Notes: a model not told the origin generated them from the letters alone. DNA of 64,000 nucleotides from an uncultured bacterium (GCA_964434115.1 CAYSSX010000001.1:85571-149570); one strand, 5' to 3'. Positions 34,583-58,408 are shown, counted from the stretch's first letter. A program made the numbers and translations.

Positions 34583-37225
34583 ATGAAAACTGACGAAATC
34601 AGGAAAACCTACCTTCGATTTTTTGAGAAGAACGCGCACCGGATCGTGGGCAGCGACTCCCTTGTTCCTCAAAATGACCCCACCCTTTTATTCACGGGCG
34701 CGGGCATGAATCAATTCAAAGAAAATTTTCTGGGGATCAAAAAAGATTTGAAGCGCGCGACCACGAGCCAGAAATGCCTTCGCACCGGGGACCTCGAAGA
34801 GGTGGGCCGCACGGCTTTTCACCATTCCTTTTTTGAAATGCTCGGTAATTTTTCTTTTGGAGATTATTTCAAGCGTGAGGCGATTCATTGGGCCTGGGAA
34901 TTTTTGACCGTGGAGGTAAAAATCCCAAAAGACCGCCTGCGCGTCAGTGTCCACCAGAGTGATGATGAAGCCTTTGCGATTTGGAAAAACGAGATTGGCC
35001 TCCGCGCGGACTGGATCTATAAGCTCGGGGACAAGGATAACTTTTGGCCGTCCAATGCGCCGAAGGATGGACCGAACGGTCCCTGCGGCCCTTGCTCGGA
35101 AATTTATTTTGATCAAGACCCCTCTCAGGGCGACGGGGGAACGGTTCAGGACAAGCGTTTTGCGGAAATCTGGAACCTTGTTTTTACACAGTTTGACCGC
35201 CAGGACGGCGGCAAGCTTGTGCCGCTTGCCCAGAAAAATATTGATACCGGGATGGGGCTTGAACGCCTTTCCTGCGTGCTTCAAGGCAAGACCACCAATT
35301 ACGAGATTGATATTTTCCAGCCGATCAATGCGGCCATTGAGCGTGCTTTGGGCCTTGCTGAGCGCAGTGTTCAGGGACCGGAGAGAAGCCATCTTTACGC
35401 GGTCAGTGATCATGTGCGGGCCATTGTTTTTTCCATGGCCGACGGCGTGATTCCTTCCAATGAGGGGCGCGGGTATGTGATCCGTAAATTGATCCGGCGT
35501 GCGCTTTGGCGCGCGCACCACATTCTTGCTTCAGCCGGGGGCGGTACGAGGCAGGAACTTAAAGGCGCTTTTTTGTATAAGATTGTTCCTGTGGTGGTAT
35601 CGGTCATGGCCCCGGCTTACCCGGAGCTTAAGGACGCGGAAAAAAGCATCACCGCGACCTTGAAAGGCGAAGAGGACCGTTTTCTTGACACGCTTGAAAC
35701 CGGCCTCCGGATTCTTGAAAGCCGGATCGCCGACCTGGATAAAAAGAAGTCCAAGGTTATTCCGGGGCAAATTGTGTTCGAGCTTTATGACACGTATGGT
35801 TTCCCGGACGAGTTGACGCGCATGATTGCGGAATCCCGCGGGCTTGAAATTGATAACGCGGGCTTTGATACGCAGATGGAAGAACAGCGCCGCCGCGCCA
35901 AACAGGCCACGCAGATTTCCGGGAGCATATTTACGGCGACCGAGCTTGAGAAAAAACTGGGTTCGCTTGCCCCGACGCGTTTCCTTGGGTATTCGGCCCT
36001 TGAAAGCGAAGCCGGTGTCCTGCTCGCGGATTTAGAAGGCGGTAAAGGGGTGGTGCTTCTCGATCAGACGCCTTTTTATGGTGAAAGCGGAGGGCAGGCC
36101 GGGGATCTTGGAACGCTTGAAAACGCTTCCTTCAAGGCCGTTGTCTTGGACACCCAGAAAAAAGATTCCTTTGTCCTTCATCTTGTGGAAGTTCAGAAAG
36201 GAAGCCTGAAGCCGGGCGATAAAGTCACCGCCCGCGTGGATGCCGAGCGCCGCGCCAGCACCATGCGGAATCATACGGCCACGCACCTTCTTCATGCCGC
36301 GCTTCGTTCTGTTCTGGGTCCTCAAGTGCGCCAGCTTGGTTCTTTGGTGGCCGCAGACCGTCTTCGTTTTGACTTCTCTCATTCTCAAGCGCTGAGCGCG
36401 GAGGAATTAAAAAAGATCGAGGACCAGGTTAATAGCGAAATTCTTTCGGACAAGGCTGTGTCCAAGGAAGAGAAGCCGGTGGAAGAGGCCAAGAAGGACG
36501 GCGCGCTCGCCTTTTTTGGTGAAAAGTATGGAGCGCTGGTCCGCGTGGTGACGATCCCTGGATTCAGCAAAGAATTTTGCGGGGGAACCCATTGCGACCG
36601 CACAGGGCAGATCGGAAGTTTTGTGATCACAAGTGATTCATCGATCGCAAGCGGAACGCGCCGGATTGAGGCGCTTACAGGTTCGGGTGCGCTGAATTAC
36701 CTGCGTGAACTGCGCGCCCAGATTGGTGAGCTTTCCGTGTCGTTGAAAACAACGCCTGAAAAGCTGGCTGAGAAAGTTTCCAAGCTTCAGGACACGATCA
36801 AAAAGATGGAGAAGGAAAAGAAGCAGAGCTCCGTGATTTCTGCGGATCCCAAGGCGATTTTGAATCAAGCCCTTACGGCGGGGGCTTTCAAGGTCGCGCG
36901 CCACAAGCTTCCGGAAGGCGCGGGCGTGGATGAACTTCGGGGGCTTTCCGATTCGCTGCGTTCCATGAGTTCAAAGACGATTTATTTTCTTGGAACGGAA
37001 AGCGAAGAGAAGGTGCATTTTGTAATCGGTTTAAGCCCTGACCTAGTGCAAGGTCCTCTGGACGCCCGTGAAGCCATGAAGACACTCGCGCCTCTTGTGG
37101 GCGGAAGCGGCGGCGGCCGCAAGGAATTGGTACAGGGCGGCGCCCGCAACCAGGGGCAGTTTAAAGACCAGTGGGACAAGATTGTGGAAAATCTGACCTC
37201 CTATGTGAATGAAAGGAACGGCTGA
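34583..37225 (+). CDS. alaS: Alanine--tRNA ligase
   Basis: Class II catalytic core, editing domain HxxxH...CGGTH, and C-terminal DHHA1-like region. Confidence 0.95.
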   Translation: MKTDEIRKTYLRFFEKNAHRIVGSDSLVPQNDPTLLFTGAGMNQFKENFLGIKKDLKRATTSQKCLRTGDLEEVGRTAFHHSFFEMLGNFSFGDYFKREAIHWAWEFLTVEVKIPKDRLRVSVHQSDDEAFAIWKNEIGLRADWIYKLGDKDNFWPSNAPKDGPNGPCGPCSEIYFDQDPSQGDGGTVQDKRFAEIWNLVFTQFDRQDGGKLVPLAQKNIDTGMGLERLSCVLQGKTTNYEIDIFQPINAAIERALGLAERSVQGPERSHLYAVSDHVRAIVFSMADGVIPSNEGRGYVIRKLIRRALWRAHHILASAGGGTRQELKGAFLYKIVPVVVSVMAPAYPELKDAEKSITATLKGEEDRFLDTLETGLRILESRIADLDKKKSKVIPGQIVFELYDTYGFPDELTRMIAESRGLEIDNAGFDTQMEEQRRRAKQATQISGSIFTATELEKKLGSLAPTRFLGYSALESEAGVLLADLEGGKGVVLLDQTPFYGESGGQAGDLGTLENASFKAVVLDTQKKDSFVLHLVEVQKGSLKPGDKVTARVDAERRASTMRNHTATHLLHAALRSVLGPQVRQLGSLVAADRLRFDFSHSQALSAEELKKIEDQVNSEILSDKAVSKEEKPVEEAKKDGALAFFGEKYGALVRVVTIPGFSKEFCGGTHCDRTGQIGSFVITSDSSIASGTRRIEALTGSGALNYLRELRAQIGELSVSLKTTPEKLAEKVSKLQDTIKKMEKEKKQSSVISADPKAILNQALTAGAFKVARHKLPEGAGVDELRGLSDSLRSMSSKTIYFLGTESEEKVHFVIGLSPDLVQGPLDAREAMKTLAPLVGGSGGGRKELVQGGARNQGQFKDQWDKIVENLTSYVNERNG

Positions 37226-38507
37226 TATGCAGGTTCTAACCTGGGATAAGATCACTCAGAAGAAAATTTGCCGGGATTTTAACGATGCGTTTGATCCCAA
37301 AATCTTTAAAAAGGTAAACCGCATTCTTGCCGAGGTCCGTTCACGCGGAGACTTGGCGATCCGCCGTTTTACGCGGGAGTTTGACGGCCTTGACCTGCCG
37401 CTGAAGAGGATTCAGGTTTCGCAGAGCGATATTAACCGGGCCTTTGAAAAGATCCAGGTGAAATTTGTCCCCATCCTGAAACAGATTACCGATAACGTTA
37501 CGGAGTACTACGAAAAGGAATTAAAACAGTCTTTTGAAATCAAGGGCAAAGACGGGGTGTATCTCGCAAAGCGCTATCAGCCTTTGGACCGCGTGGGGGT
37601 TTATATTCCCGGAGGCACCGCGCCGCTGGTTTCAACGGTCTATATGACGGTGATTCCCGCGAAAGTCGCGGGCGTCAAAGAAATCGTGATCGCGACGCCG
37701 CCGAACCGCGACACGGGAGAGATTGACCCCAACATTCTGGCTGTGGCAAATCTTCTGGGCGTGAAGGAAATCTACCGCGTGGGCGGGGCGCAGGCGATTG
37801 GGGCCTTGGCTTTTGGAACGCGGACCATCCGCAAGGTCAATAAAATCGTCGGTCCCGGCAATCAGTATGTGACCGAAGCCAAGCGCCAGGTTTACGGGTT
37901 TGTGGATATTGATATGGTCGCCGGTCCCAGTGAAGTCGCGATTATCGCGGACAGTACCGCGGACCCGGACTTTGTGACCTGCGATCTTCTTGCCCAGGCG
38001 GAGCATGCGGGCGGTATTCCTTACCTGATTACACCGTCAAAAAAACTGATTGAAATTATCCGTAAGCGGGTCGATACAGGTTTCATTATCCAGGTGAAAT
38101 CGATTGCGGAAGCCTGTGAAGTGGCGAATGCCATTGCGGCTGAGCACCTTGAAATCCTCACCGAAGACCCGGAAAAAGTCGCCAAGATGATTGACCACGC
38201 GGGCGCTATTTTCCTGGGGCCTTATTCACCGGCCGTCGTGGGGGATTACATTGCCGGTCCCAGCCATGTGCTGCCAACGGGCGGAACCGCGCGTTATTAT
38301 TCGCCGCTCAGCGCGTCGTCTTTTGTGAAGAGCACCCAGATTATTTCCTACACCAAGGAAGCGCTTTTGAAATCCCGTGAACATGTGAAGCAATTGACGG
38401 ACATGGAAGGACTCGTGCTGCACCGGATTTCCATGGAAGCCCGTTTTGTTGAAAAGACGCCAAATGAAGAAACCGAAACAGAAAAAGAAGGGGCTGCCGC
38501 GGAGTAG
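37209..38507 (+). CDS. hisD: Histidinol dehydrogenase
   Basis: Full-length HisD with GGAQAIGALAFGT region, AGPSE, HxxxH. Start may be ATG 37227. Confidence 0.95.
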   Translation: MKGTADMQVLTWDKITQKKICRDFNDAFDPKIFKKVNRILAEVRSRGDLAIRRFTREFDGLDLPLKRIQVSQSDINRAFEKIQVKFVPILKQITDNVTEYYEKELKQSFEIKGKDGVYLAKRYQPLDRVGVYIPGGTAPLVSTVYMTVIPAKVAGVKEIVIATPPNRDTGEIDPNILAVANLLGVKEIYRVGGAQAIGALAFGTRTIRKVNKIVGPGNQYVTEAKRQVYGFVDIDMVAGPSEVAIIADSTADPDFVTCDLLAQAEHAGGIPYLITPSKKLIEIIRKRVDTGFIIQVKSIAEACEVANAIAAEHLEILTEDPEKVAKMIDHAGAIFLGPYSPAVVGDYIAGPSHVLPTGGTARYYSPLSASSFVKSTQIISYTKEALLKSREHVKQLTDMEGLVLHRISMEARFVEKTPNEETETEKEGAAAE

Positions 38508-38533
38508 TATCCGGCACCATGAGGGGGCGAAGG

Positions 38534-39136
38534 ATGAAAGCTTCAGTGAGAAAAGCTGATTTTAAGAGAACGACCCGCGAGACCGACATTGCCATGAAAC
38601 TAAATGTGGATGGCAGCGGAGTCTGCTCGCTCGATACGGGCATTCCTTTTCTGAATCACATGCTTGAGCTTTTTACCAAGCACGGCCTGTTCGACCTCAC
38701 GGTCAAAGCCAAGGGCGACCTGGATGTCGACATTCACCACACGAATGAAGATGTGGGGATTACGCTTGGGCAGGTTCTCACGAAAGCGCTGGCCGGAAAA
38801 ACCGGGATCCGGCGGTATGGTTTTTTTCATGTTCCGATGGATGAAGCCTTGATCCGGGTCACGCTGGATATTTCCGGGCGCCCGTCGCTTCATGTTTCCA
38901 AAGCGCGTGAAGTGTCTTTCTCGCGTCTTGAAAATTATTCGTTTCATGACGCTATGGAATTTATGAAGGCCTTCTGCCAGCATGCCGGAATCAATATGCA
39001 CATTGAAGTGGCGGCAGGCCGCGACTCCCACCACATTATCGAAGGCGTTTTTAAGGCCGTTGCGCGTGCGCTTGATGCGGCCACCCAGATCGACCCGCGC
39101 GTCAAGGGTGTTCCTTCCACGAAAGGCAGCCTTTAA
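38534..39136 (+). CDS. hisB: Imidazoleglycerol-phosphate dehydratase (monofunctional)
   Basis: RTTRETDI and HHxxE/ HH motifs; about 200 aa, IGPD domain only. Confidence 0.9.
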   Translation: MKASVRKADFKRTTRETDIAMKLNVDGSGVCSLDTGIPFLNHMLELFTKHGLFDLTVKAKGDLDVDIHHTNEDVGITLGQVLTKALAGKTGIRRYGFFHVPMDEALIRVTLDISGRPSLHVSKAREVSFSRLENYSFHDAMEFMKAFCQHAGINMHIEVAAGRDSHHIIEGVFKAVARALDAATQIDPRVKGVPSTKGSL

Positions 39137-39138
39137 GC

Positions 39139-39750
39139 ATGATCGTGGTCCTAGACTACGGCATGGGAAACCTTCGAAGCGTTTCGAAGGCACTGGAGCA
39201 TTTGGGGGCGGACGTTAAAGTCACTTCCAATCCTGCGGACCTTGCCCGCGCTGAAAAGGCGATTCTTCCGGGGGTGGGCGCTTTTGGCGACGCTTCCAAG
39301 GAACTGGACCGGGCCGGTCTTCGCGAGCCGCTCGTCGACTACATTCGTTCCGGCGGTTTGTTTCTCGGCATCTGTCTGGGCCTGCAGCTTCTTTTTTCAG
39401 AAAGCGAAGAAACCCCCGGTGCTAAAGGCCTGGGGATTTTTCCGGGTACTGTCCGGCTGTTTCGTTCTCCGGGGCTTAAGGTCCCGCACATGGGCTGGAA
39501 TCAGATTCTCATCCGGAAACAGCACCCGCTTCTCAAGGGGATCGCGGACAAAAGTTATTTTTATTTCGTGCATTCTTATTATGCCCCGGCCGGAGCCGGC
39601 GGCGCCAGTGCCGCGGATTGTGATTACGGCGGAGAAATGTTCAGCGCGGCCCTGGGAACGGAAACTCTTTTTGCGGCTCAATTTCATCCGGAGAAAAGCC
39701 AGGAAGCGGGCCTCCGGATTCTTAAGAATTTTGTGGAATGGAAAAAATGA
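39139..39750 (+). CDS. hisH: Imidazole glycerol phosphate synthase, glutaminase subunit
   Basis: Class-I GATase: GICLGLQ (catalytic Cys); HMGWN; C-terminal HPE. Confidence 0.9.
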   Translation: MIVVLDYGMGNLRSVSKALEHLGADVKVTSNPADLARAEKAILPGVGAFGDASKELDRAGLREPLVDYIRSGGLFLGICLGLQLLFSESEETPGAKGLGIFPGTVRLFRSPGLKVPHMGWNQILIRKQHPLLKGIADKSYFYFVHSYYAPAGAGGASAADCDYGGEMFSAALGTETLFAAQFHPEKSQEAGLRILKNFVEWKK

Positions 39751-40481
39751 TCCTCTATCCAGCGATTGATCTTTATCAGGGAAAAGTGGTCCGGCTCTCA
39801 CGGGGAGATTTTCAGGCGGAAACGGTTTATTCCGACAATCCTCCGGCGCAGGCCCTTGAATGGCAGAACCAGGGCGCTGAGTGGATTCATGTGGTGGATC
39901 TTGAAGGCGCGAAAACCGGGGAACTCCGGAACCTTTCCTGGGTTCTTAAAATCCGCCAGAGTGTGAACTGCAAGCTCCAGGTTGGAGGCGGGCTTCGCCG
40001 GGCCGAAGACGTGGAGCGCCTTCTTAAAGAAGGGGTCAACCGGGTGGTGATCGGGACCAAGGCTTTGGATCAGAAGTTTTTTCTCGGGCTCTTGGAAAAG
40101 TTCGGGGACCGGATCGCGGTCAGCCTGGACACCAAGGAAGGGCGCGTTCAAACCGAAGGCTGGCTCAAAGAGAGCGGGGAATCGCTTGAGGCCATGTTAA
40201 AACGATTCAATGAAATGACGCTTTCGACCGTTATCTATACAGACATTGCCCGCGATGGCATGCTTCAAGGCCCCAACCTCCAAGGTTTAAGCCAGGTTCT
40301 AGAGTGGAGCAAGGCGAGTGTTATTTTGTCCGGGGGGATTTCCAGTCTCGCGGATCTGGAACAGTGCCGGACGCTCAAGCATAAAAATTTTAACGGTGTG
40401 ATCATGGGCAAGGCCCTTTATGAAAAACGTTTTGAGCTTAAAGAGGCGGTTCGTCTTGCCTCACAAAAGGCCGTGGCTTAA
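39738..40481 (+). CDS. hisA: ProFAR isomerase HisA
   Basis: (M)ILYPAIDLYQGKVVRL N-terminus; TIM-barrel phosphate-binding motifs. Start at 39738 or 39747 (ATGA overlap with hisH). Confidence 0.9.
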   Translation: MEKMILYPAIDLYQGKVVRLSRGDFQAETVYSDNPPAQALEWQNQGAEWIHVVDLEGAKTGELRNLSWVLKIRQSVNCKLQVGGGLRRAEDVERLLKEGVNRVVIGTKALDQKFFLGLLEKFGDRIAVSLDTKEGRVQTEGWLKESGESLEAMLKRFNEMTLSTVIYTDIARDGMLQGPNLQGLSQVLEWSKASVILSGGISSLADLEQCRTLKHKNFNGVIMGKALYEKRFELKEAVRLASQKAVA

Positions 40482-40903
40482 TGGAAATGTTTAATTCTTA
40501 CCTGAATGTTATTTTGCAGGAAAGGTTCTGGTCCTGGTCGATTATCGGAATCATTTACCTTATCTTCGCTTTTACCGTGCGCGGCTGGTTTTTGAATCCG
40601 CTCTTCCGGGACGTGAAGCACCTCAAGCCGCGCTATTACCACGAGATCAAGCAGATCTACCTGAAGTATTCCTTCTGGGGCTGGTTTCTTTTTTTTCTCC
40701 CAGTCGTTTTCTTTACTTATGTCTGGAATCAGACAGCCAAAGAACCGTTGACTCTGCGGCATCACCTTGCGATTGCTTTGGGTTTTTTCAGCTTTCTTGC
40801 ATCCATCATGATTCATATGCGTGCCTTTGCGAACGCGTGTGTGGAGCTCCTCCGGGAGATGGTGGATGAAAAGGATGCCCAGGCTGTTGTGAAGCACGTT
40901 TAA
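40481..40903 (+). CDS. Hypothetical small membrane protein (3 predicted TM) inserted between hisA and hisF
   Basis: 140-aa ORF tightly packed (TAATG overlap with hisA, 17 nt before hisF). Hydrophobic helices. Lower-GC codon usage than flanking his genes by eye. Confidence 0.5.
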
Positions 40904-40920
40904 CCCCACAGACTTTCCGC

Positions 40921-41685
40921 ATGCTCGCCAAACGCATTATTCCATGCCTCGATGTTAAGGACGGCCGTGTTGTCAAAGGTGTCAACTTCGTCAATCTGCT
41001 TGATGCGGGTGATCCCGTGGCGTGCGCCAAGGCCTACGATGAATCCGGTGCTGATGAATTAGTTTTCCTGGACATCACAGCCTCCCATGAAAAACGCGGA
41101 ACAACCCTCGAAATGGTGGAAAAAGTCGCTGAAACCGTAATGATTCCCTTTACGGTGGGAGGCGGCATACGCGAGGTGCAGGACATCCGGGATTTGCTCA
41201 AAGCGGGATGCGATAAGGTTTCGATTAATACCAGCGCGATACAAAACCCCGATTTTATCCGTCAGGCCAGCAGCCGTTTTGGAAGCCAGTGCATTGTTCT
41301 CGCGGTCGATGCTAAACGGGACACGGATGGGACATGGCGCGTCTACACCCATGGCGGCCGGAACCCTACAGGCTTGGATGCTGTGGCCTGGGCCAAGGAA
41401 GGCGAACGTTTGGGCGCTGGGGAGATTCTTCTAACCAGTATGGACCGGGACGGCACGAAACTCGGCTACGATGTGGAGCTTTTGCGTATTATTTCCGAAA
41501 GCCTCAAGATTCCGCTGATCGCCTCTGGAGGAGTTGGAACGCTGGAACATTTTTATCAGGGTTTTCATGAAGGTAAAGCGGACGCGTGCCTTGCCGCATC
41601 GGTATTTCATTTTGGGGAATTCCGTATTTCTCAGGTCAAAAACTACCTGGCAGAGCGTGGAATTCCTGTCCGTGTAACTTCTTGA
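40921..41685 (+). CDS. hisF: Imidazole glycerol phosphate synthase, cyclase subunit
   Basis: [21 protein letters not shown]-terminus; full-length HisF. Confidence 0.95.
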
Positions 41686-41777
41686 CACAGATTGAACTTG
41701 TGGCATACTGAAGAATTAAGAAGCTGTAAAGGCTTTCAGCCATCATTATAAGACATTTAAATCAAAGGAGTTAGGTT

Positions 41778-42155
41778 ATGACGGAATTCAAGTACGACTC
41801 AAAAGGACTGATGCCGGTCATTATTCAGGACGTGGACAGCGGCGAAGTTCTGATGCTTGCTTATATGGACAAAGTGGCAGTTGAAAGAACCCTCAAAGAA
41901 AAAAAGACGGTTTTCTTCTCCCGTTCCCGCAACAAATATTGGGTCAAAGGCGAAAGTTCAGGCCACATTCAGGAAGTCAAACAAGCTCTTACGGACTGCG
42001 ACACGGACACAATTCTTGTGAAAGTGAAGCAGCACGGAGGCGCCTGCCACCTTGGGTACAGAACCTGCTTTGTCCACGAGCTGGATGAAAATGCTCAGGT
42101 CACCCGCATTACGCAGGAAAAGGTTTTTGACCCGGACAGTGTTTATAAATCATGA
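41778..42155 (+). CDS. hisI: Phosphoribosyl-AMP cyclohydrolase (HisI only, no HisE domain)
   Basis: LMLAYMD... and C-x..C region (GGACHLGYRTCF). Confidence 0.9.
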   Translation: MTEFKYDSKGLMPVIIQDVDSGEVLMLAYMDKVAVERTLKEKKTVFFSRSRNKYWVKGESSGHIQEVKQALTDCDTDTILVKVKQHGGACHLGYRTCFVHELDENAQVTRITQEKVFDPDSVYKS

Positions 42156-43642
42156 TTTCTCCGGATCTGAAAACCTTCAAACAGATGTCCCGGAAGGGAA
42201 ATCTGATCGCTGTCACGGAAACAGTCCCCGCCGACCTTGAAACGCCTGTCTCGAGTTTTTTAAAAATCGCGGGCCGTGAAAAGAACGCTTTCTTGCTTGA
42301 ATCCGCGGAGCAGGAAGAGCGGGTGGGGCGTTACTCGATTCTGGGGATCCACCCGGAGACTCTTTTGGGCGCGGGCGCGGATGGAAAACTTTTTGAGGAA
42401 GTTGACGGGAAACGCAAAGCCTTGAATTTCAAAGGCGCGCTCTGTGACGCGGTGGAAGCGAGAATGAAACAGATGAAACTCGCGAACCCGCAGGACTTGA
42501 AAGGTTTCAGCGGCGGATTTGTCGGGTATCTGAGTTATGAAAATGTCGCGGATTTTGACGATGTCCGTTTAAAACCCTTAGCCTCGATCGGTGTCCCTCA
42601 GGGGATTTTCGTTTTTTGCCGCGACCTGGTGATCTTTGACCATTTCCGCAAACAGCTTCACTTTGTGTCCCTGGTTCCGGTTTCTAAAAGTCAATCCGCC
42701 GAAAAAGCTTACCGCCGGGGTGTGGCCAGTATTCAGAGCCTGACCGCGCGTCTCAGCCGCCCGCTTAACAGCTCTTCCCGTTCTTTGTCCGCGAAAGCAC
42801 CCAAACCTCATTTTCACATGAAGCCTGAAGCCTTCGAGGCCAAGGTCAAGCGTGTGAAGGAATATATCCGGGCCGGGGACTGTATTCAGGTGGTTTTGTC
42901 TCAGCGCTTTTCTTTGCCTTTCAAGGGCCAAGACTTTCAGATTTACCGCGCTTTGCGTTCGATCAACCCTTCACCCTACATGTTTTATTTCCGCTGCGGC
43001 GATTTGCGTTTGATCGGGTCTTCTCCGGAACTGCTGGTCAAGAAAACCGGCTTGCTCGCCGAAGTGCGCCCTATTGCCGGAACACGCCCGCGCGGCGCCT
43101 CAATCCGTGAAGACTTAAAGCATGAAGAGAATTTGAAAAAATCCCGGAAGGAATTGGCCGAGCACCTGATGCTTGTGGACTTGGGCCGCAACGATCTGGG
43201 CCGGGTCTGCCGCTACGACTCGATCCGCGTTGAAAACTTTGCCCGTGTCGAACGTTATTCCCACGTCATGCATCTGGTCAGTGATGTTTCCGGAAAGCTC
43301 AAGCCGGGGATGACCTCCTTTGATCTTTTGAAGGCGACTTTTCCGGCGGGAACGGTTTCCGGGGCACCGAAAATCAGGGCCATGGAAATTATCAATGAAT
43401 TGGAAGCCGAGACGCGCGGGCCTTATGCCGGCTGCCTGGGGTACTTCGGCTTGAACGGGGATATGGACATGTGTATTACGATCCGGACCATGGTTCTTCA
43501 CGGCGGACGTCTTTACCTTCAGGCCGGCGCCGGGATCGTGAAAGATTCCAATCCCAAAAGTGAATATCAGGAAACGGTCAATAAAGCGAAGGCGTTGTTT
43601 AAGGCCATTGAAGAACAGGGGCGGTTCAAATGCTTCTCGTGA
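42152..43642 (+). CDS. trpE: Anthranilate synthase component I
   Basis: Chorismate-binding domain motifs ([20 protein letters not shown]). Confidence 0.95.
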
Positions 43643-44214
43643 TCGATAATTACGATTCCTTTACCTACAACCTGGTGCAGTATTTCGGGGAATTGAAAAC
43701 CAAGCCTCAGGTGTGGAGGAATGACAAAATTACGATTGCCGCCATCCGCAAAATGAAACCGGACCAGATTGTGATCTCCCCGGGACCCTGCACGCCGAAA
43801 GAGGCCGGCATTTCCAACGAAGTGATCCGGACCTTTGCCGGAGTGATTCCGATTCTGGGCGTTTGCCTGGGGCATCAATGTATTGGAGACACTTTTGGCG
43901 GCCGGATTATCCGGGCCAAGCAAATCATGCACGGAAAGACTTCGGAAATTTTTCATAAGGACCAGGGCGTGTTTGAAGGCCTGCCGAAACCTTTTCCCGC
44001 AACCCGGTATCATTCGCTGGTGATTGAGAAGAAATCTTTTCCGGCCAAGGAGCTTGAAATCACGGCCTGGACCAAGGACGGGGAAATCATGGGGGTCAGG
44101 CACCGCCGGTATCCGGTCTGGGGCGTGCAGTTTCACCCGGAATCGATTTTGACCACCTCCGGAAAAGACATTCTAAGAAATTTTCTCAAACTTTCACGCG
44201 CTTCAAAAAAGTGA
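43630..44214 (+). CDS. trpG: Anthranilate synthase component II (glutamine amidotransferase)
   Basis: GVCLGHQ catalytic Cys; GVQFHPES. Confidence 0.9.
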
Positions 44215-45242
44215 AGGCTGTGATGCAGCCCGTATTGACCGCGCTTTTAGCAGGCAAAAAACTGAGCTTTGCTGAGGCGAAAAAAGTTTTTACCGCTCTT
44301 TTTCAGGAAAAAATTCCCGTTTCTCAGGCTAAAGCCTTTTTGCTTCTGCTTGCTGAAAGAGGGGAAAGTTCAGACGAACTTCGCGGCTGCGTGGAGGCCC
44401 TCCGGGCGCTGGAGCCGCCGCGCCGTTCCCCTTACGGGGACCTGCTGGACACCTGCGGGACAGGCGGTGACGGGTCGAATTCCGTGAATGTCTCAACGCT
44501 CGCGGCCTTTGTGATTGCCGGCGCGGGCGGGCATGTCGCGAAGCACGGGAACCGGGCCATTACCTCCAAGTCAGGAAGCTCTGATTTGCTCGATGCTCTG
44601 GGCGTCAAAATAGAAGCCCCGATCGCCCGGATGCAGGCGGCGATTAAAAAAGCAGGCATTGGTTATTTTCACGCGCCTCTTTATCACCCGGTTTTTGCGA
44701 GGGTGCAGCCTTTGAGAAAATCGCTCAAAGTCAGGACGGTTTTTAATTTGCTCGGACCGCTTGTGAACCCGCTGAACGTGGCGTATCAGCTCACGGGCGT
44801 ATCCCGCGCCGAACACCTGAAGCTTTACGCGGAAGTGTTCAAACATCGTCCGGGGGTCAAGCGGGCGCTCATTTGCCGCAGTGAAGAAGGCTGGGACGAA
44901 ATTTCGGTTTTAAAACCCACCCGGTTTCTGCTTGTGGAAAAAGGCCGCGTGAAGGCCGGAGTGATTGATCCCAGAGAGCTGGGGCTCCAAGGCGGGCGCT
45001 TGGAAGATTTAAAAGGCGGCACGCCGGAAAGAAGTGCGGTGCTTGCCGAGAAGATTTTAAACGGCACTCAAAAAGGCCCGCTCCGCAATTTGATTGTGAT
45101 CAATGCGGCCGCGGGAATTTGGACAGCCGGACTCGCGAAGAATCTCCGTGAAGGGGTTCTTGCCGCGGAGTCCTCGATTAACAGCGGAAACGCACGGAAA
45201 GCGCTGCGAGATTTGGTGCGCATTTCCAAGGGCGGGGTTTGA
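44211..45242 (+). CDS. trpD: Anthranilate phosphoribosyltransferase
   Basis: [17 protein letters not shown] motif (GTGGD). Confidence 0.95.
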
Positions 45243-45245
45243 TTC

Positions 45246-46058
45246 ATGATTTTGAATGAAATTGTGCAGCAAAAACGCAAAGATCTTGAAGAGCTCAAGA
45301 GACGGTTTCCGCCCCACCGCCTGAAAAAGGCCGTGGAACATTTGAAGCCTTCGCAAAGGCGGCCGTTTCTCAAGGCCATCAGCAGTCCCAAGAAACTCAA
45401 CATTATCTGCGAATTGAAAAAGGCCTCACCTTCCGAAGGCGTGATCCGCGAGGATTTTCAGCCTTTGCGCATTGCGTCCATTTACGAACACGCCGGAGCG
45501 GCTGCGCTTTCAATCCTTACGGAGCCGCATTTTTTCAAAGGCCGTCCCAGCTATCTGAAAACCGTCCGGCAGGTGACCACCATTCCGCTTCTGAGAAAGG
45601 ATTTTATTTTTGAAACTTATCAGCTTTATGAAACAGCCCTGCTTGAGGCGGACGCTTTTTTACTGATCGCCTGTCTTTTGACTGAAGAAGAGCTCAAGAC
45701 CTTGATTGATCTTGGCCGGGAGCTTGGTATGGATGCCCTGGTGGAAATCCACGCGGATGAGGATTTGAAGAAGGCTTTGGATGCGGGCGCCCAAATCATC
45801 GGGATCAATAACCGGAATTTAAAGACTCTCGAAGTGGATGTGAACCGTTCCAAACAGCTGCTGCCGCACATTCCCAAGGGGATTATTAAAGTGGTCGAAA
45901 GCGGCTTGAGCAGTCACGAACAGCTATTATCTTATAAGGGGTACGGGGCGGACGCTTTTCTGATTGGGACTGCCTTTATGAAGTCCCCGGATATTCTTGC
46001 CTCGGTCGAGAGTTTTCTCGGGACCGACCGGAAATGGCGCAAAACGGAGGAAGTCTGA
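45246..46058 (+). CDS. trpC: Indole-3-glycerol phosphate synthase
   Basis: IICELKKASPS...; LRKDFIF; GINNRNL. Confidence 0.9.
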   Translation: MILNEIVQQKRKDLEELKRRFPPHRLKKAVEHLKPSQRRPFLKAISSPKKLNIICELKKASPSEGVIREDFQPLRIASIYEHAGAAALSILTEPHFFKGRPSYLKTVRQVTTIPLLRKDFIFETYQLYETALLEADAFLLIACLLTEEELKTLIDLGRELGMDALVEIHADEDLKKALDAGAQIIGINNRNLKTLEVDVNRSKQLLPHIPKGIIKVVESGLSSHEQLLSYKGYGADAFLIGTAFMKSPDILASVESFLGTDRKWRKTEEV

Positions 46059-55261: not shown

Positions 55262-56231
55262 GCATCCAGGGGTTTTCCTTCTCATTTTTCTGCTTCCGCT
55301 GATTTTCTATATCGCGTCAAAAAAGTCACGCGTTTACCTGCCTTTCTCGACCACGGCGCTTTTCAGAAAGCCGCAAATTTCCCTGAGAATTTTTCTCTAC
55401 CGCGCTATGCCTTACCTCCGGGCGCTGGTTCTGCTGCTTTTTGTGGTGGCTTTGGCGCGCCCTCAAAAAGTCGCGGCCGAGCGCGAGTACAGCACCAACG
55501 GCGTGGATATCGTGATCTCCCTCGACTTGTCAGGATCCATGCTGGCGGAAGATTTTAAACCGGAAAACCGCATGGCCATCGCCAAGCAGGAAGCCATTAA
55601 ATTTATCCGGGGACGTGAAAATGACAGGATCGGCCTTGTGGTCTTTGCGCGCAAGGCGTTTACGCAATGCCCGCTCACCCTGGATTACGATGTTTTGACG
55701 GACCTCACGGACCAGCTTCACGTGGGAATGATCCCGGACGGCACAGCGATCGGCATGGGACTGGCCACGGCCGTGAACCGGCTTCGTGACAGCCAGGCCA
55801 AAAGCAAAGTCATTATTCTGATCACGGACGGATCCAACAACGCGGGCAATATTGACCCCATCACAGCCGCCGAACTGGCTAAGACGTTTGGAATCCGCGT
55901 GCATTCCATTGTCGTGGGGAAGGGCGGTCTTGTGCCTTTTCCGGTGAATGACCCGTTGTTTGGAAAGCGCTACGTACAGGCCAATATCGAAATTGACGAG
56001 GACGTGATGAAGCGGATCGCGGATATTACGGGAGGCTTGTTCTTCCGCGCCCGTGATCCTGAGTCCCTCCACCAGATTTACCAGAAAATCAATGAATTGG
56101 AAAAGACGGAAGTGAAGGTCAAGGAATACCGCAGTTTCGAAGAGTACTTTCACTTGTTCCTGATTCCCGCGCTCCTGCTTTTGTTTCTCGATTGGTTTCT
56201 GGCGCGAACCCTTCTCATGAAGGTGCCCTGA
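55251..56231 (+). CDS. batA: VWA-domain membrane protein (BatA-like)
   Basis: Two N-terminal TM helices. VWA MIDAS DIVISLDLSGSM...TDG. C-terminal TM. Confidence 0.8.
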   Translation: MEFRHPGVFLLIFLLPLIFYIASKKSRVYLPFSTTALFRKPQISLRIFLYRAMPYLRALVLLLFVVALARPQKVAAEREYSTNGVDIVISLDLSGSMLAEDFKPENRMAIAKQEAIKFIRGRENDRIGLVVFARKAFTQCPLTLDYDVLTDLTDQLHVGMIPDGTAIGMGLATAVNRLRDSQAKSKVIILITDGSNNAGNIDPITAAELAKTFGIRVHSIVVGKGGLVPFPVNDPLFGKRYVQANIEIDEDVMKRIADITGGLFFRARDPESLHQIYQKINELEKTEVKVKEYRSFEEYFHLFLIPALLLLFLDWFLARTLLMKVP

Positions 56232-58408
56232 TGCAGTTTTTTCATCCCGAATACTTTCTTTTGCTCTGGGTGCTTCCGGCGGTTTGGGGACTCCACGTCC
56301 TTTCCGTGCGGCTGTGGCAAGGCCGCATGAAACGTTTTGGCGACCGGGTCACGCTTGAAACCAAATTGCTTCCTCAGTACCGGAAAAACCACTGGGGTGT
56401 GCGCGCGGTTTTGATCACCCTGGTGTTTCTTTTTTCCATTCTGGCGCTGGCCCGGCCGCAGTGGGGTGAAGAGAAAAAGAAGGTCCAGCGTAAAGGCGTT
56501 GACCTTGTATTTCTTCTCGATACTTCACTCAGTATGCTTGCCGAAGATGTGAAGCCGAACCGTTTTGAAAAAGCCCAGATGGAGATCAAGAGTTTTGTGC
56601 GCAGTCTTAAAGGGGACAGGATCGGGCTCGTGGCCTTTTCGGGATCCAGTTTTCTGCAGGCGCCATTGACGCTTGATTACGCTGCCTTTTTTCTTTTTCT
56701 GGACGGTATCCGGGTAGGCTATATTCCGGACCCCGGAACCTCCCTGAGTAAGGCCATTGGGCTTTCCATACGGTCTTTTCCCAAAGACGATATGAAGCAT
56801 AAGGCCCTTATCCTCTTTACCGATGGGGAAGACCTGCAGGGGGGGATGGATGAGGCCATTAAGGCGGCCAAGGAAGCGGGGGTTCGTATCTACACCATTG
56901 GCGTGGGTACGGAAGAAGGGGACCCGATCCCCCTCAAGGACGATACCGGCCGGAAGAGCGGCTTTAAGAAGGACCGTGCCGGGCAGGTGGTCGTGACCAA
57001 GCTGGACAAAGCACTGCTTCAAAAAATCGCGGCGGAAACAGGCGCTGTGTATCTTCCCAGCACCCCGGGTGAGGACGAAGTGGAATATATCCTCAAACAC
57101 CTTCAAAGTTTGGGTCAGCGGCAGTTTAAAGAAAAGCTGATTTCCGAAAAAGAAGATCATTACCAGATTTTCGTTTTTCTCGCTTTTTTCTTTTTGCTGC
57201 TGGAAATGATGGTGCGCGTGACCCGGAAAAACGGGAGCGTTTCAGGCCCCAGCGTTCTTCCGGTGCTGCTTTTATTTTTTCTGTTTACCGGCTTTCTCGA
57301 CACCACGCGTTCGCTCAATGAAAAAGGCAATGCCGAATTTGAACAAAAAAAATACCAGACCGCGCTTGAGAATTACCGCAAGGCGCAGGTGAAAAATCCG
57401 GATGACCCGGTGGTGATGTACAACCTTGGGGCGGGTCTTTACCAGACCCAGCAGTATCAGGAAGCGAAAAAGAATTTTGAAGGCGCTATCGCCAAGACCA
57501 AGGACCCGGAACTTAAGGCCAAAGCGCTCTACAATTACGGCAATACGCTTTACCGTTTAGGGGATTTTGAGAAGGCTATTGATTCCTATAAAAAGGCTCT
57601 TGAGCTCAAGCCCGACGACCAGGACGCCAAATACAATCTTGAGTTTTTGCAGAAGTCCAAGAACCGGATGGAAAAGGAAAACCAGGACAAACAAAAGCAA
57701 AGTGATAAACAGGACCAAAAGCAAAATCAGGACAAACAGCAGAATCAGCAGAACCAGCAGCAGAAGCCCGATCAGAAAAAGGACCAGCAGCAGAACCAGG
57801 GCGATCAGCAGCCCCAGGACCAGCAGGGGGAAGGCCAGCAGGGCAAGCAGGGGGACCAGAAGCAGGACCAGAATCAGGATCAAGATCAGAAGAAAGAACC
57901 CCAGGACCAGCAGGGCGAACAAAACCAGGATCAGAAAGACCCTCAAGATCAGCAGGGCCAGCAAGGTGAAAAGGACGACCAGAAGCAGGATCAGAAGCGC
58001 GATGAGGGCGATCAGCAGGATCAGCAGCCGAAACCCAAAGAGGACGGCCAGCCCGAAGAAGCCAAGCCTGAGGACGAGCAAGGTAATGAACCCCCGGAGC
58101 AGCCTGATCAAAAGGAAGGCGATCAGCCCCAGGACCAGCCGGAACCGAATCAAGAAGGTCAGCCCGAGCAGGCCAGCCCTGATGAGCAGCAAGGCGATCA
58201 GCCTGGAGAGCAAGGCGAACAGACGGAGCAAAGTGCGGGACAGGAAGAAAACCCTCAATCCCAGCAAAAAGCGCCGCTTCAAGGGCAAATGACTAAAGAG
58301 AACGCGCTTCGTATGCTTGACGCGATGAAAGACGGCGAAAAGGACCTACAGGACCTCCGCCGGCCGCCGTCCGAACATAAAGAAGTGCCGCCGGAAAAAG
58401 ACTGGTAA
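56231..58408 (+). CDS. batB: VWA plus TPR protein (BatB-like) with about 210-aa Q/D/K/E-rich low-complexity C-terminal tail
   Basis: TGATG overlap with batA. VWA MIDAS DLVFLLDTSLSM...TDGED. TPR repeats (YNLGAGLYQTQQYQEAKKNF, YNYGNTLYRLGDFEKAIDSYKKALEL). Then QDQKQ-rich tail. Confidence 0.8.
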   Translation: MQFFHPEYFLLLWVLPAVWGLHVLSVRLWQGRMKRFGDRVTLETKLLPQYRKNHWGVRAVLITLVFLFSILALARPQWGEEKKKVQRKGVDLVFLLDTSLSMLAEDVKPNRFEKAQMEIKSFVRSLKGDRIGLVAFSGSSFLQAPLTLDYAAFFLFLDGIRVGYIPDPGTSLSKAIGLSIRSFPKDDMKHKALILFTDGEDLQGGMDEAIKAAKEAGVRIYTIGVGTEEGDPIPLKDDTGRKSGFKKDRAGQVVVTKLDKALLQKIAAETGAVYLPSTPGEDEVEYILKHLQSLGQRQFKEKLISEKEDHYQIFVFLAFFFLLLEMMVRVTRKNGSVSGPSVLPVLLLFFLFTGFLDTTRSLNEKGNAEFEQKKYQTALENYRKAQVKNPDDPVVMYNLGAGLYQTQQYQEAKKNFEGAIAKTKDPELKAKALYNYGNTLYRLGDFEKAIDSYKKALELKPDDQDAKYNLEFLQKSKNRMEKENQDKQKQSDKQDQKQNQDKQQNQQNQQQKPDQKKDQQQNQGDQQPQDQQGEGQQGKQGDQKQDQNQDQDQKKEPQDQQGEQNQDQKDPQDQQGQQGEKDDQKQDQKRDEGDQQDQQPKPKEDGQPEEAKPEDEQGNEPPEQPDQKEGDQPQDQPEPNQEGQPEQASPDEQQGDQPGEQGEQTEQSAGQEENPQSQQKAPLQGQMTKENALRMLDAMKDGEKDLQDLRRPPSEHKEVPPEKDW
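57655..58290 (+). repeat. Coding low-complexity repeat tract (CAG/GAC/AAG-rich; encodes QDQKQ-type tail of BatB-like protein)
   Basis: Reiterated caggac/cagcag/aagcag units; produces spurious ORFs in other frames and on the minus strand. Confidence 0.6.

Follow-up and report, generated by a model that had tools for sequence, protein, structure and literature searches.

A conserved three-helix membrane protein gene at the hisA-hisF junction of an uncultured Omnitrophota clade

A 140-amino-acid open reading frame (ORF), here termed gene X, lies between the histidine biosynthesis genes hisA and hisF of an uncultured bacterium (GCA_964434115.1 CAYSSX010000001.1:85571-149570); the whole stretch of 64,000 nucleotides that was analysed is referred to as the window, and coordinates are counted from its first letter. 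A first-pass annotation, made from the sequence alone, had described a 140-aa ORF that overlaps the hisA stop codon (TAATG) and ends 17 nt before hisF, and all of this was confirmed from the window sequence. The flanking genes are true hisA and hisF genes by their TIGRFAM models, and hisH lies upstream; the hisH-hisA-hisF order is indeed broken by X. The features of the junction are:

40481-40903, plus strand: gene X, 140 aa, stop codon at 40901-40903 (ORF call, homologs, ratio of nonsynonymous to synonymous differences (pN/pS), AlphaFold2 model)
40479-40483, plus strand: TAATG, in which the hisA stop and the X start share one base (translational coupling; read from the sequence)
40904-40920, plus strand: 17-nt spacer between X and hisF, with the ATG of hisF at 40921 (read from the sequence)
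39738-40481, plus strand: hisA (TIGR00007, 261 bits, cut-off 229; PF00977)
40921-41685, plus strand: hisF (TIGR00735, 392 bits, cut-off 295; PF00977)

X is a real gene under purifying selection. A word-index search returned X homologs at 100, 71, 59 and 49% identity, and in codon alignments of the window with three homolog loci the pN of X was 0.17-0.38 against a saturated pS of 0.63-0.88, a pattern that matches hisH, hisA, hisF and hisI. The gene evolves about 1.5-2 times faster than hisA, and the rank order of its divergence across relatives is the same as that of the his genes. A chance reading frame is excluded, because 26 distinct lineages share the gene and its pN lies far below its pS.

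The product is a three-transmembrane (3-TM) protein, as the first-pass annotation had proposed, with three hydrophobic segments at residues ~17-38, 64-82 and 96-115. Its parts are listed below, with conservation counted over an alignment of 73 family members:

40529-40594, plus strand: TM1, residues ~17-38 (hydropathy), with R15-x-W17-S18-W19 at the outer end and R34 at the cytoplasmic end, conserved in 62-72 of 73 members
40595-40669, plus strand: cytoplasmic basic loop 1, residues 39-63, with a short helix at 50-63 and an invariant Y60 (K/R counts; AlphaFold2 helix)
40670-40726, plus strand: TM2, residues ~64-82 (hydropathy), with G67-W68 at the cytoplasmic end and W82 at the outer end
40727-40765, plus strand: short outer loop 2, residues 83-95 (hydropathy, alignment, AlphaFold2)
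40766-40825, plus strand: TM3, residues ~96-115 (hydropathy), with near-invariant H112 and A115 near the cytoplasmic end
40826-40900, plus strand: cytoplasmic C-terminal helix, residues 116-140, continuous with TM3 in the AlphaFold2 model (charge counts)

Loop 1 carries six K/R residues in the window protein (family mean, 6.8 K+R). Across the family, loop 1 and the C-terminal tail together hold 9.8 K+R on average versus 3.1 for the N-terminal tail and outer loop 2, and the former sum is the larger one in every member. Because the positive-inside rule fits 73/73 sequences in this way, X is predicted to be an inner-membrane protein of N-out/C-in topology.

With the 73-sequence alignment, AlphaFold2 yielded an all-helical model with a predicted local distance difference test score (pLDDT) of 96 and a predicted template modelling score (pTM) of 0.83; with four sequences only, the pLDDT was 78. 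The rise from 78 to 96 with 73 sequences argues for a real co-evolution signal in the family. The model comprises helices at residues 2-13, 15-45 (TM1 with a cytoplasmic extension), 50-63 (juxtamembrane), 65-84 (TM2) and 92-139 (TM3 with the cytoplasmic helix).

Eleven positions are conserved in at least 80% of the 73 members (R15, W17, S18, W19, R34, Y60, G67, W68, W82, H112 and A115), many of them interfacial Trp. The signature residues R15, W17-S18-W19, R34, Y60, G67-W68, W82 and H112 are all present in the window protein and are conserved in 62-73 of the 73; R34, Y60, G67-W68 and H112 gather on the cytoplasmic face. No acidic residue is conserved among the 73 members, and the TM helices are nearly devoid of D/E (~0), which speaks against both metal-dependent catalysis and proton-coupled transport. 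Domains that would bind nucleic acids or act as sensors were not found in X. The scarcity of acidic residues, together with the pattern of conservation, points to a cytoplasm-facing interaction or ligand site.

The extent of the family was determined by a HMMER profile scan over 1.84 billion representatives (clusters at 50% identity, E ≤ 1e-3), which returned 97 clusters, 67 of them with E ≤ 1e-10. Almost all are single-domain proteins of 125-145 aa, and none of the 97 is a larger protein that carries the X domain, apart from one entry (P0096) in which the C-terminus of HisA reads into X without a stop. The contig of this entry (L113, JGI 3300019785 Ga0182022_1316899) is frameshifted in hisB, hisH, hisA and X, and the HisA-X fusion was rejected as a sequencing or assembly artefact; as a public entry, it could mislead fusion-based function prediction.

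The first-pass annotation had found no enzymatic motif in the ORF and had suggested a homology and structure search; no Pfam or NCBIfam family reached its cut-off for the window protein, and the search uncovered a conserved family with no known relative in Pfam, NCBIfam, PHROGs or the PDB. Pfam searches with the 73 members gave scattered sub-threshold matches to 19 unrelated hydrophobic families, none of them consistent; four diverse members had no match in PHROGs; a PDB sequence-profile search with X gave nothing meaningful; and Foldseek of the model against the PDB gave a best E of 1.0.

The taxonomy of the bearers rests on the source names of the homologs and on the nearest HisA matches. 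Most homologs are named "hypothetical protein" and come from Candidatus Omnitrophica / Omnitrophota; one member stems from a metagenome-assembled genome labelled "Verrucomicrobiae", and another (P0071, UniRef100_A0A2H0LUC4) is named "Mechanosensitive ion channel protein MscS" and belongs to Candidatus Abzuiibacterium crystallinum, of a genus of the Omnitrophota. Wherever the source of a member gives a phylum, that phylum is Omnitrophota. A clearly annotated gene shared by relatives had been named as grounds for giving up the first-pass view: relatives do conserve the same gene, but under the label "hypothetical protein" and in one case the spurious "MscS". X forms a hitherto undescribed family that is restricted to one clade of Omnitrophota.

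The genomic context of X was compared in loci obtained from exact protein look-ups, a HisA-based scan of species-representative genomes and an X-based metagenome scan, the last with a 13-sequence subset of the family alignment. After removal of near-duplicates, 26 distinct X lineages remained, with pairwise identities down to 13% (median 28%). The comparison of hisA-hisF junctions that the first-pass annotation had suggested gave a uniform picture: X adjoins hisA and/or hisF in 25 of the 26 lineages, down to 19% identity to the window protein, and loci with X in the his slot include L001-L011 and L089-L116 (except L091/L092). The usual context is alaS-hisD-hisB-hisH-hisA-X-hisF-(hisI)-trpE-trpG-trpD-trpC. 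Across relatives, the distance from the upstream stop to the X start is -8 to +9 nt, and that from the X stop to the next start is -1 to +38 nt. The sole exception is L091/L092 (L091:5001-5905), where X overlaps the start of a 167-aa His_Phos_1 (SixA-like) gene; the neighbours there are genes for CHAD, ROK and Ppx-GppA proteins and a polyphosphate kinase, and a CNNM/TolC/HlyD/ABC-C39 cluster is transcribed divergently.

Among the 80 HisA loci listed from species representatives, hisF, where it lies downstream, is 9-143 nt from hisA; the exceptions among the matches listed are the X-bearing loci and one X-less Omnitrophota locus, L064. X was not found elsewhere in the X-less HisA loci among these matches. 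In L064 the slot between hisA and hisF holds an unrelated, soluble 129-aa 23S_rRNA_IVP ORF (L064:4788-5177; PF05635, E = 2e-14), and the hisA-hisF junction has thus apparently been invaded at least twice in Omnitrophota. In two further X-less loci (L041:4735-4854 and L067:4717-4813), the hisA-hisF spacers of 96-119 nt consist of short tandem motifs (cacacagcacacagcacacagcacac; gcctaacgg x3).

In a neighbour-joining tree of HisA+HisF the X-bearing loci form one clade, with the X-less Omnitrophota locus L018 as its sister, and the other X-less Omnitrophota (L041, L064 and L067) fall elsewhere in the tree. The simplest history would be that a subclade of the Omnitrophota gained X once, at its base, and has passed it on vertically since.

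In the window, X is embedded in a co-directional super-operon:

34583-46058, plus strand: alaS, hisD, hisB, hisH, hisA, X, hisF, hisI, trpE, trpG, trpD, trpC (ORFs; Pfam for hisH, hisA, hisF and hisI; same order in relatives)

The alaS gene abuts or overlaps hisD, trpEGDC follows directly after hisI, and this arrangement is conserved across the clade. X is built into this transcription unit, which bears out the idea of the first-pass annotation that the ORF was co-opted into the operon. The hisB gene encodes the imidazoleglycerol-phosphate dehydratase (IGPD) only, and hisI the phosphoribosyl-AMP cyclohydrolase (PRA-CH) only; hisG, hisC, hisE and a histidinol-phosphatase gene were not found among the window ORFs of the super-operon. 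No terminator signal above chance was detected in 37000-42400 and no promoter signal above chance around X, and a search of the whole window against Rfam gave no match.

Other genes have entered the same operon. A secreted VanY-type D-Ala-D-Ala carboxypeptidase (PF02557, E = 9e-27) lies between hisF and hisI in two X-bearing lineages (L107:2001-2798 and L109:3492-4304), a further envelope-related passenger in the operon. In L114:6267-9233, genes for a TPR protein, a 147-aa ORF, an ABC-F ATPase and an S4_2 protein are inserted between hisF and hisI, with hisA-X-hisF intact, and L011 and L089 have no hisI there. The plasticity of the operon seems to be centred on the hisF-hisI spacer. Of the promoter-like sites in the region, the best one lies at 41682-41709 in the window, at the end of hisF and in the 92-nt hisF-hisI spacer (TTGACA, 16 nt, CATACT, extended TG; 10/12 matches), and could be a candidate internal promoter at this plastic junction. 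On the larger scale, all ~52 long ORFs in 74-58870 lie on the plus strand and the strand switches only after ~58.9 kb, an unusually long co-directional run; within it, a 738-aa ORF (56192-58408; grand average of hydropathy (GRAVY) -1.05, GC content at second codon positions (GC2) 0.31) would encode a large, highly charged protein.

The reading that we favour, at a probability of roughly 0.55, is that X encodes a small membrane protein without catalytic function, either an adaptor or a structural subunit, and that the gene is an orphan passenger in the operon whose job is not in histidine synthesis. X would have been acquired at the hisA-hisF junction a single time, when the clade arose, and would since have been inherited vertically within alaS-hisDBHA-X-hisF(I)-trpEGDC. 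It would be transcribed and translated together with HisA and HisF; lying inside the transcription unit and translationally coupled, it should be made whenever these two enzymes are made. The protein would then insert into the inner membrane and show a small cytoplasmic helical platform with R34, Y60 and H112, and its working surface would consist of the cytoplasm-facing R34, Y60, G67-W68 and H112 plus the C-terminal helix. Its output would be slaved to the operon by translational coupling, and its job would lie in the membrane or envelope.

A non-catalytic role is suggested by the lack of a conserved acidic residue, the helices with nearly no D/E and the eleven conserved positions. The passenger status is supported by L091/L092, where X stands away from the his genes and is coupled to a SixA-like gene, by the X-less sister lineages, in which hisA and hisF are adjacent as they are in other bacteria, and by the other passengers of the operon (VanY, 23S_rRNA_IVP, and TPR with ABC-F). 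The transporter and regulatory roles proposed in the first-pass annotation are, from the features of the family, neither of them favoured.

Several points weigh against this reading. The hisA-X-hisF block is steadier than the rest of the operon: within the clade the X slot is kept where there are inserts downstream or hisI is lost. Neighbourhoods conserved in this way, with the gene coupled on both sides, usually signal a functional link, and a histidine-specific role for X is possible on the synteny. The value of this synteny is limited in either direction, since all bearers belong to one clade and the lineages are not independent, which makes it weak evidence of function, for or against a his role. 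The HisA+HisF tree is a neighbour-joining tree without bootstrap, and the comparison covers the loci around X or hisA rather than whole genomes.

The main alternative within histidine synthesis is that X tethers the pathway to the membrane, as a platform to which HisA and/or the HisF-HisH imidazole glycerol phosphate synthase docks, or, in a variant, that co-translational insertion of X holds the translating his-trp mRNA at the membrane. Either form would place the conversion of N'-[(5'-phosphoribosyl)formimino]-5-aminoimidazole-4-carboxamide ribonucleotide (ProFAR) to its phosphoribulosyl isomer (PRFAR) and on to imidazole glycerol phosphate (IGP) at the inner membrane. Retention of X at hisA/hisF in 25 of the 26 lineages, coupled and even with the operon rearranged downstream, agrees with a tether, as does the gathering of the conserved residues on the cytoplasmic face, and a hisBHAF metabolon has been proposed (PMC1963479, PMC10138114). 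This metabolon is itself unconfirmed, however (PMC10138114), and no clade-specific extension or insert that could serve for docking was found in the HisA and HisF of X-bearing lineages. Further, the only apparent HisA-X fusion is the frameshift artefact P0096, X also occurs away from his genes (L091/L092), and a structural match to PceB was not reproduced with the pLDDT-96 model. Both forms of the tether taken together appear possible, with the odds clearly against them. The more specific proposal that X, which may have arisen de novo between hisA and hisF in an ancestor among the Omnitrophota, recruits HisA and HisF-HisH or the his-trp mRNA to the inner membrane is decidedly doubtful.

A small homo-oligomeric transporter or channel for histidine or a pathway-related solute is what a membrane protein within an amino-acid biosynthesis operon brings to mind, the more so as the start and stop spacing couples its expression to that of the pathway genes. 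Three-helix protomers can form transporters as dimers, e.g. SemiSWEET. The TM helices of X are, however, essentially without conserved charged or polar residues that could line a pore or bind a substrate (D/E ~0), no transporter family was recovered by sequence or fold, with no SemiSWEET-type structure among the matches listed, and the monomer model is a compact and confident fold alone; we consider this role improbable.

The dehydratase-only hisB raises the question of a missing pathway enzyme, for example a membrane-bound histidinol-phosphate phosphatase. The operon contains no phosphatase gene, and outside the his operon (L091/L092) X is coupled to a gene of the histidine-phosphatase superfamily. 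Yet X lacks conserved acidic and metal-binding residues, neither motifs nor matches of the HAD, PHP, IMPase or PAP2 type were found in it, and relatives without X get by although their hisB is likewise IGPD-only, which makes the enzyme very improbable.

An MscS-type mechanosensitive channel, as the label of UniRef100_A0A2H0LUC4 would have it, is hardly credible. The matches to PF12794 (MscS_TM) are weak (4/73 members, best E = 0.0016; window protein, 16.3 bits against a cut-off of 28) and are such as chance would give for hydrophobic queries, and the MS_channel domain PF00924, which a protein of ~135 aa is too small to hold, was found neither in the 73 members (0/73) nor in the window protein. 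The name was probably propagated from a sub-threshold MscS_TM match. A class I holin, which has the same 3-TM N-out/C-in topology, was also considered and rejected; the four diverse members had no PHROG match, and the context is a biosynthetic operon.

The first-pass annotation had called the ORF foreign-looking and possibly a recent insertion, with a codon usage AT-richer than that of the flanking his genes. The DNA of X is AT-richer than its flanks, with a GC content of 0.466 versus ~0.52-0.58 in the flanking DNA and local dips of 0.46-0.48; this part stands, and is the observation in favour of an insertion. The synonymous usage, however, is native. The deficit is confined to the first two codon positions (GC1, z = -2.8; GC2, z = -2.2), and GC3 is 0.629 against 0.587±0.045 for the 56 other window genes (z = +0.9), or z = +1.17 after correction for amino-acid content. 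The mean synonymous adaptiveness of X (0.100) is in the range of the window genes (0.129±0.055).

The codon TTA, listed as frequent in the first-pass annotation, occurs in frame not once. TTT:TTC is 10:6 in X versus 42:12 in hisD, hisB, hisH, hisA and hisF pooled, and AAA:AAG is 1:6 versus 51:43. Phe makes up 11.4% of the residues versus 4.0% in the his genes, and Tyr 5.0% versus 2.5%; Leu and Ile are also raised. The AT-richness of X is hence due to its content of Phe, Tyr, Leu and Ile and is no codon-usage effect, and foreign codon usage is ruled out by GC3, composition-corrected GC3 and the in-frame codon counts.

Nor does the locus bear the marks of an insertion: a scan of the flanks revealed no repeats that bracket X, only short chance repeats, and no mobile-element genes lie beside it, the neighbours being hisA and hisF. 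Throughout a deep clade, X is found in one and the same slot (25 of the 26 lineages, down to 19% identity), without patchy presence, in all sampled clade members, and its bearers are monophyletic. Recent horizontal insertion of foreign DNA is scarcely tenable, and X is neither foreign nor recent.

Finally, that the ORF is spurious, or that an ORF on the opposite strand is the true gene, has practically no probability left:

40478-40909, minus strand: antisense shadow ORF of 143 aa, no gene (no family match; stops in relatives)

Both the window and L005 keep this frame open, but it has no Pfam or NCBIfam match, and L001 has one stop in it and L002 has two, so that it is a shadow of the sense frame, which has purifying selection and a confident fold based on co-evolution to its credit. 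The enzyme, MscS, foreign-insertion and spurious-ORF readings remain improbable even when taken jointly.

With this analysis, a hypothetical gene is resolved into a defined, clade-restricted family with a confident fold, a clear topology and near-absolute synteny between two paralogous barrel enzymes, HisA and HisF, and it neatly illustrates how an orphan gene can be fixed far inside an essential biosynthetic operon of an uncultured phylum. One misleading database label ("MscS") is corrected and one artefactual "HisA fusion" entry exposed. If X binds HisA or HisF, the unconfirmed idea of a hisBHAF metabolon (PMC10138114) becomes directly testable; if X indeed recruits these enzymes, theirs would be the first histidine "core" metabolon anchored in a membrane, and nature would have provided a test of the hisBHAF hypothesis. 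If it does not bind them, X is one more passenger gene, whose stability reflects tight operon packing.

X constitutes a new, uncharacterised family and yet an instance of a known phenomenon. The closest parallel is found in Corynebacterium glutamicum, in which impA (cg2298) lies between hisA and hisF (hisHA-impA-hisFI) and its deletion leaves histidine prototrophy unaffected; the same holds for deletion of the permease gene cg2301 in hisDCB-cg2302-cg2301 (PMC3896937). Like impA, which is co-transcribed with the his genes, X is a non-his gene exactly at the hisA-hisF junction, predicted to be co-transcribed and conserved in its own lineage. In contrast, ImpA is a soluble protein of the inositol-monophosphatase family with homologs everywhere, whereas X is a 3-TM protein from an orphan family; they share no sequence relationship, and their origins lie in different phyla.

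The MscS channels share with X no more than that both are helical proteins of the inner membrane (PF12794 is sub-threshold in 4/73 members); X has no MS_channel domain, pore helix or cytoplasmic beta domain, and falls short of half the size that such a channel needs. The PceB/RdhB proteins (PDB 8q4h_D), small membrane anchors of three helices for soluble enzymes, have no sequence similarity to X, and the structural match does not recur in the high-confidence model.

More generally, the literature recognises a class of "alien" and "ORFan" genes within operons (PMC10138114), and in beta-proteobacteria the his operons often contain non-his genes (PMC1963479). X resembles these genes in that it is part of the his transcription unit, shares no homology with the his enzymes, has no evident pathway role and is fixed in a compact his operon; some of them also encode membrane proteins, e.g. 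the MFS permease cg2301. It differs from them in having no homologs outside one Omnitrophota clade, in being coupled codon to codon to both neighbours, and in a position that has been unusually stable over deep divergence.

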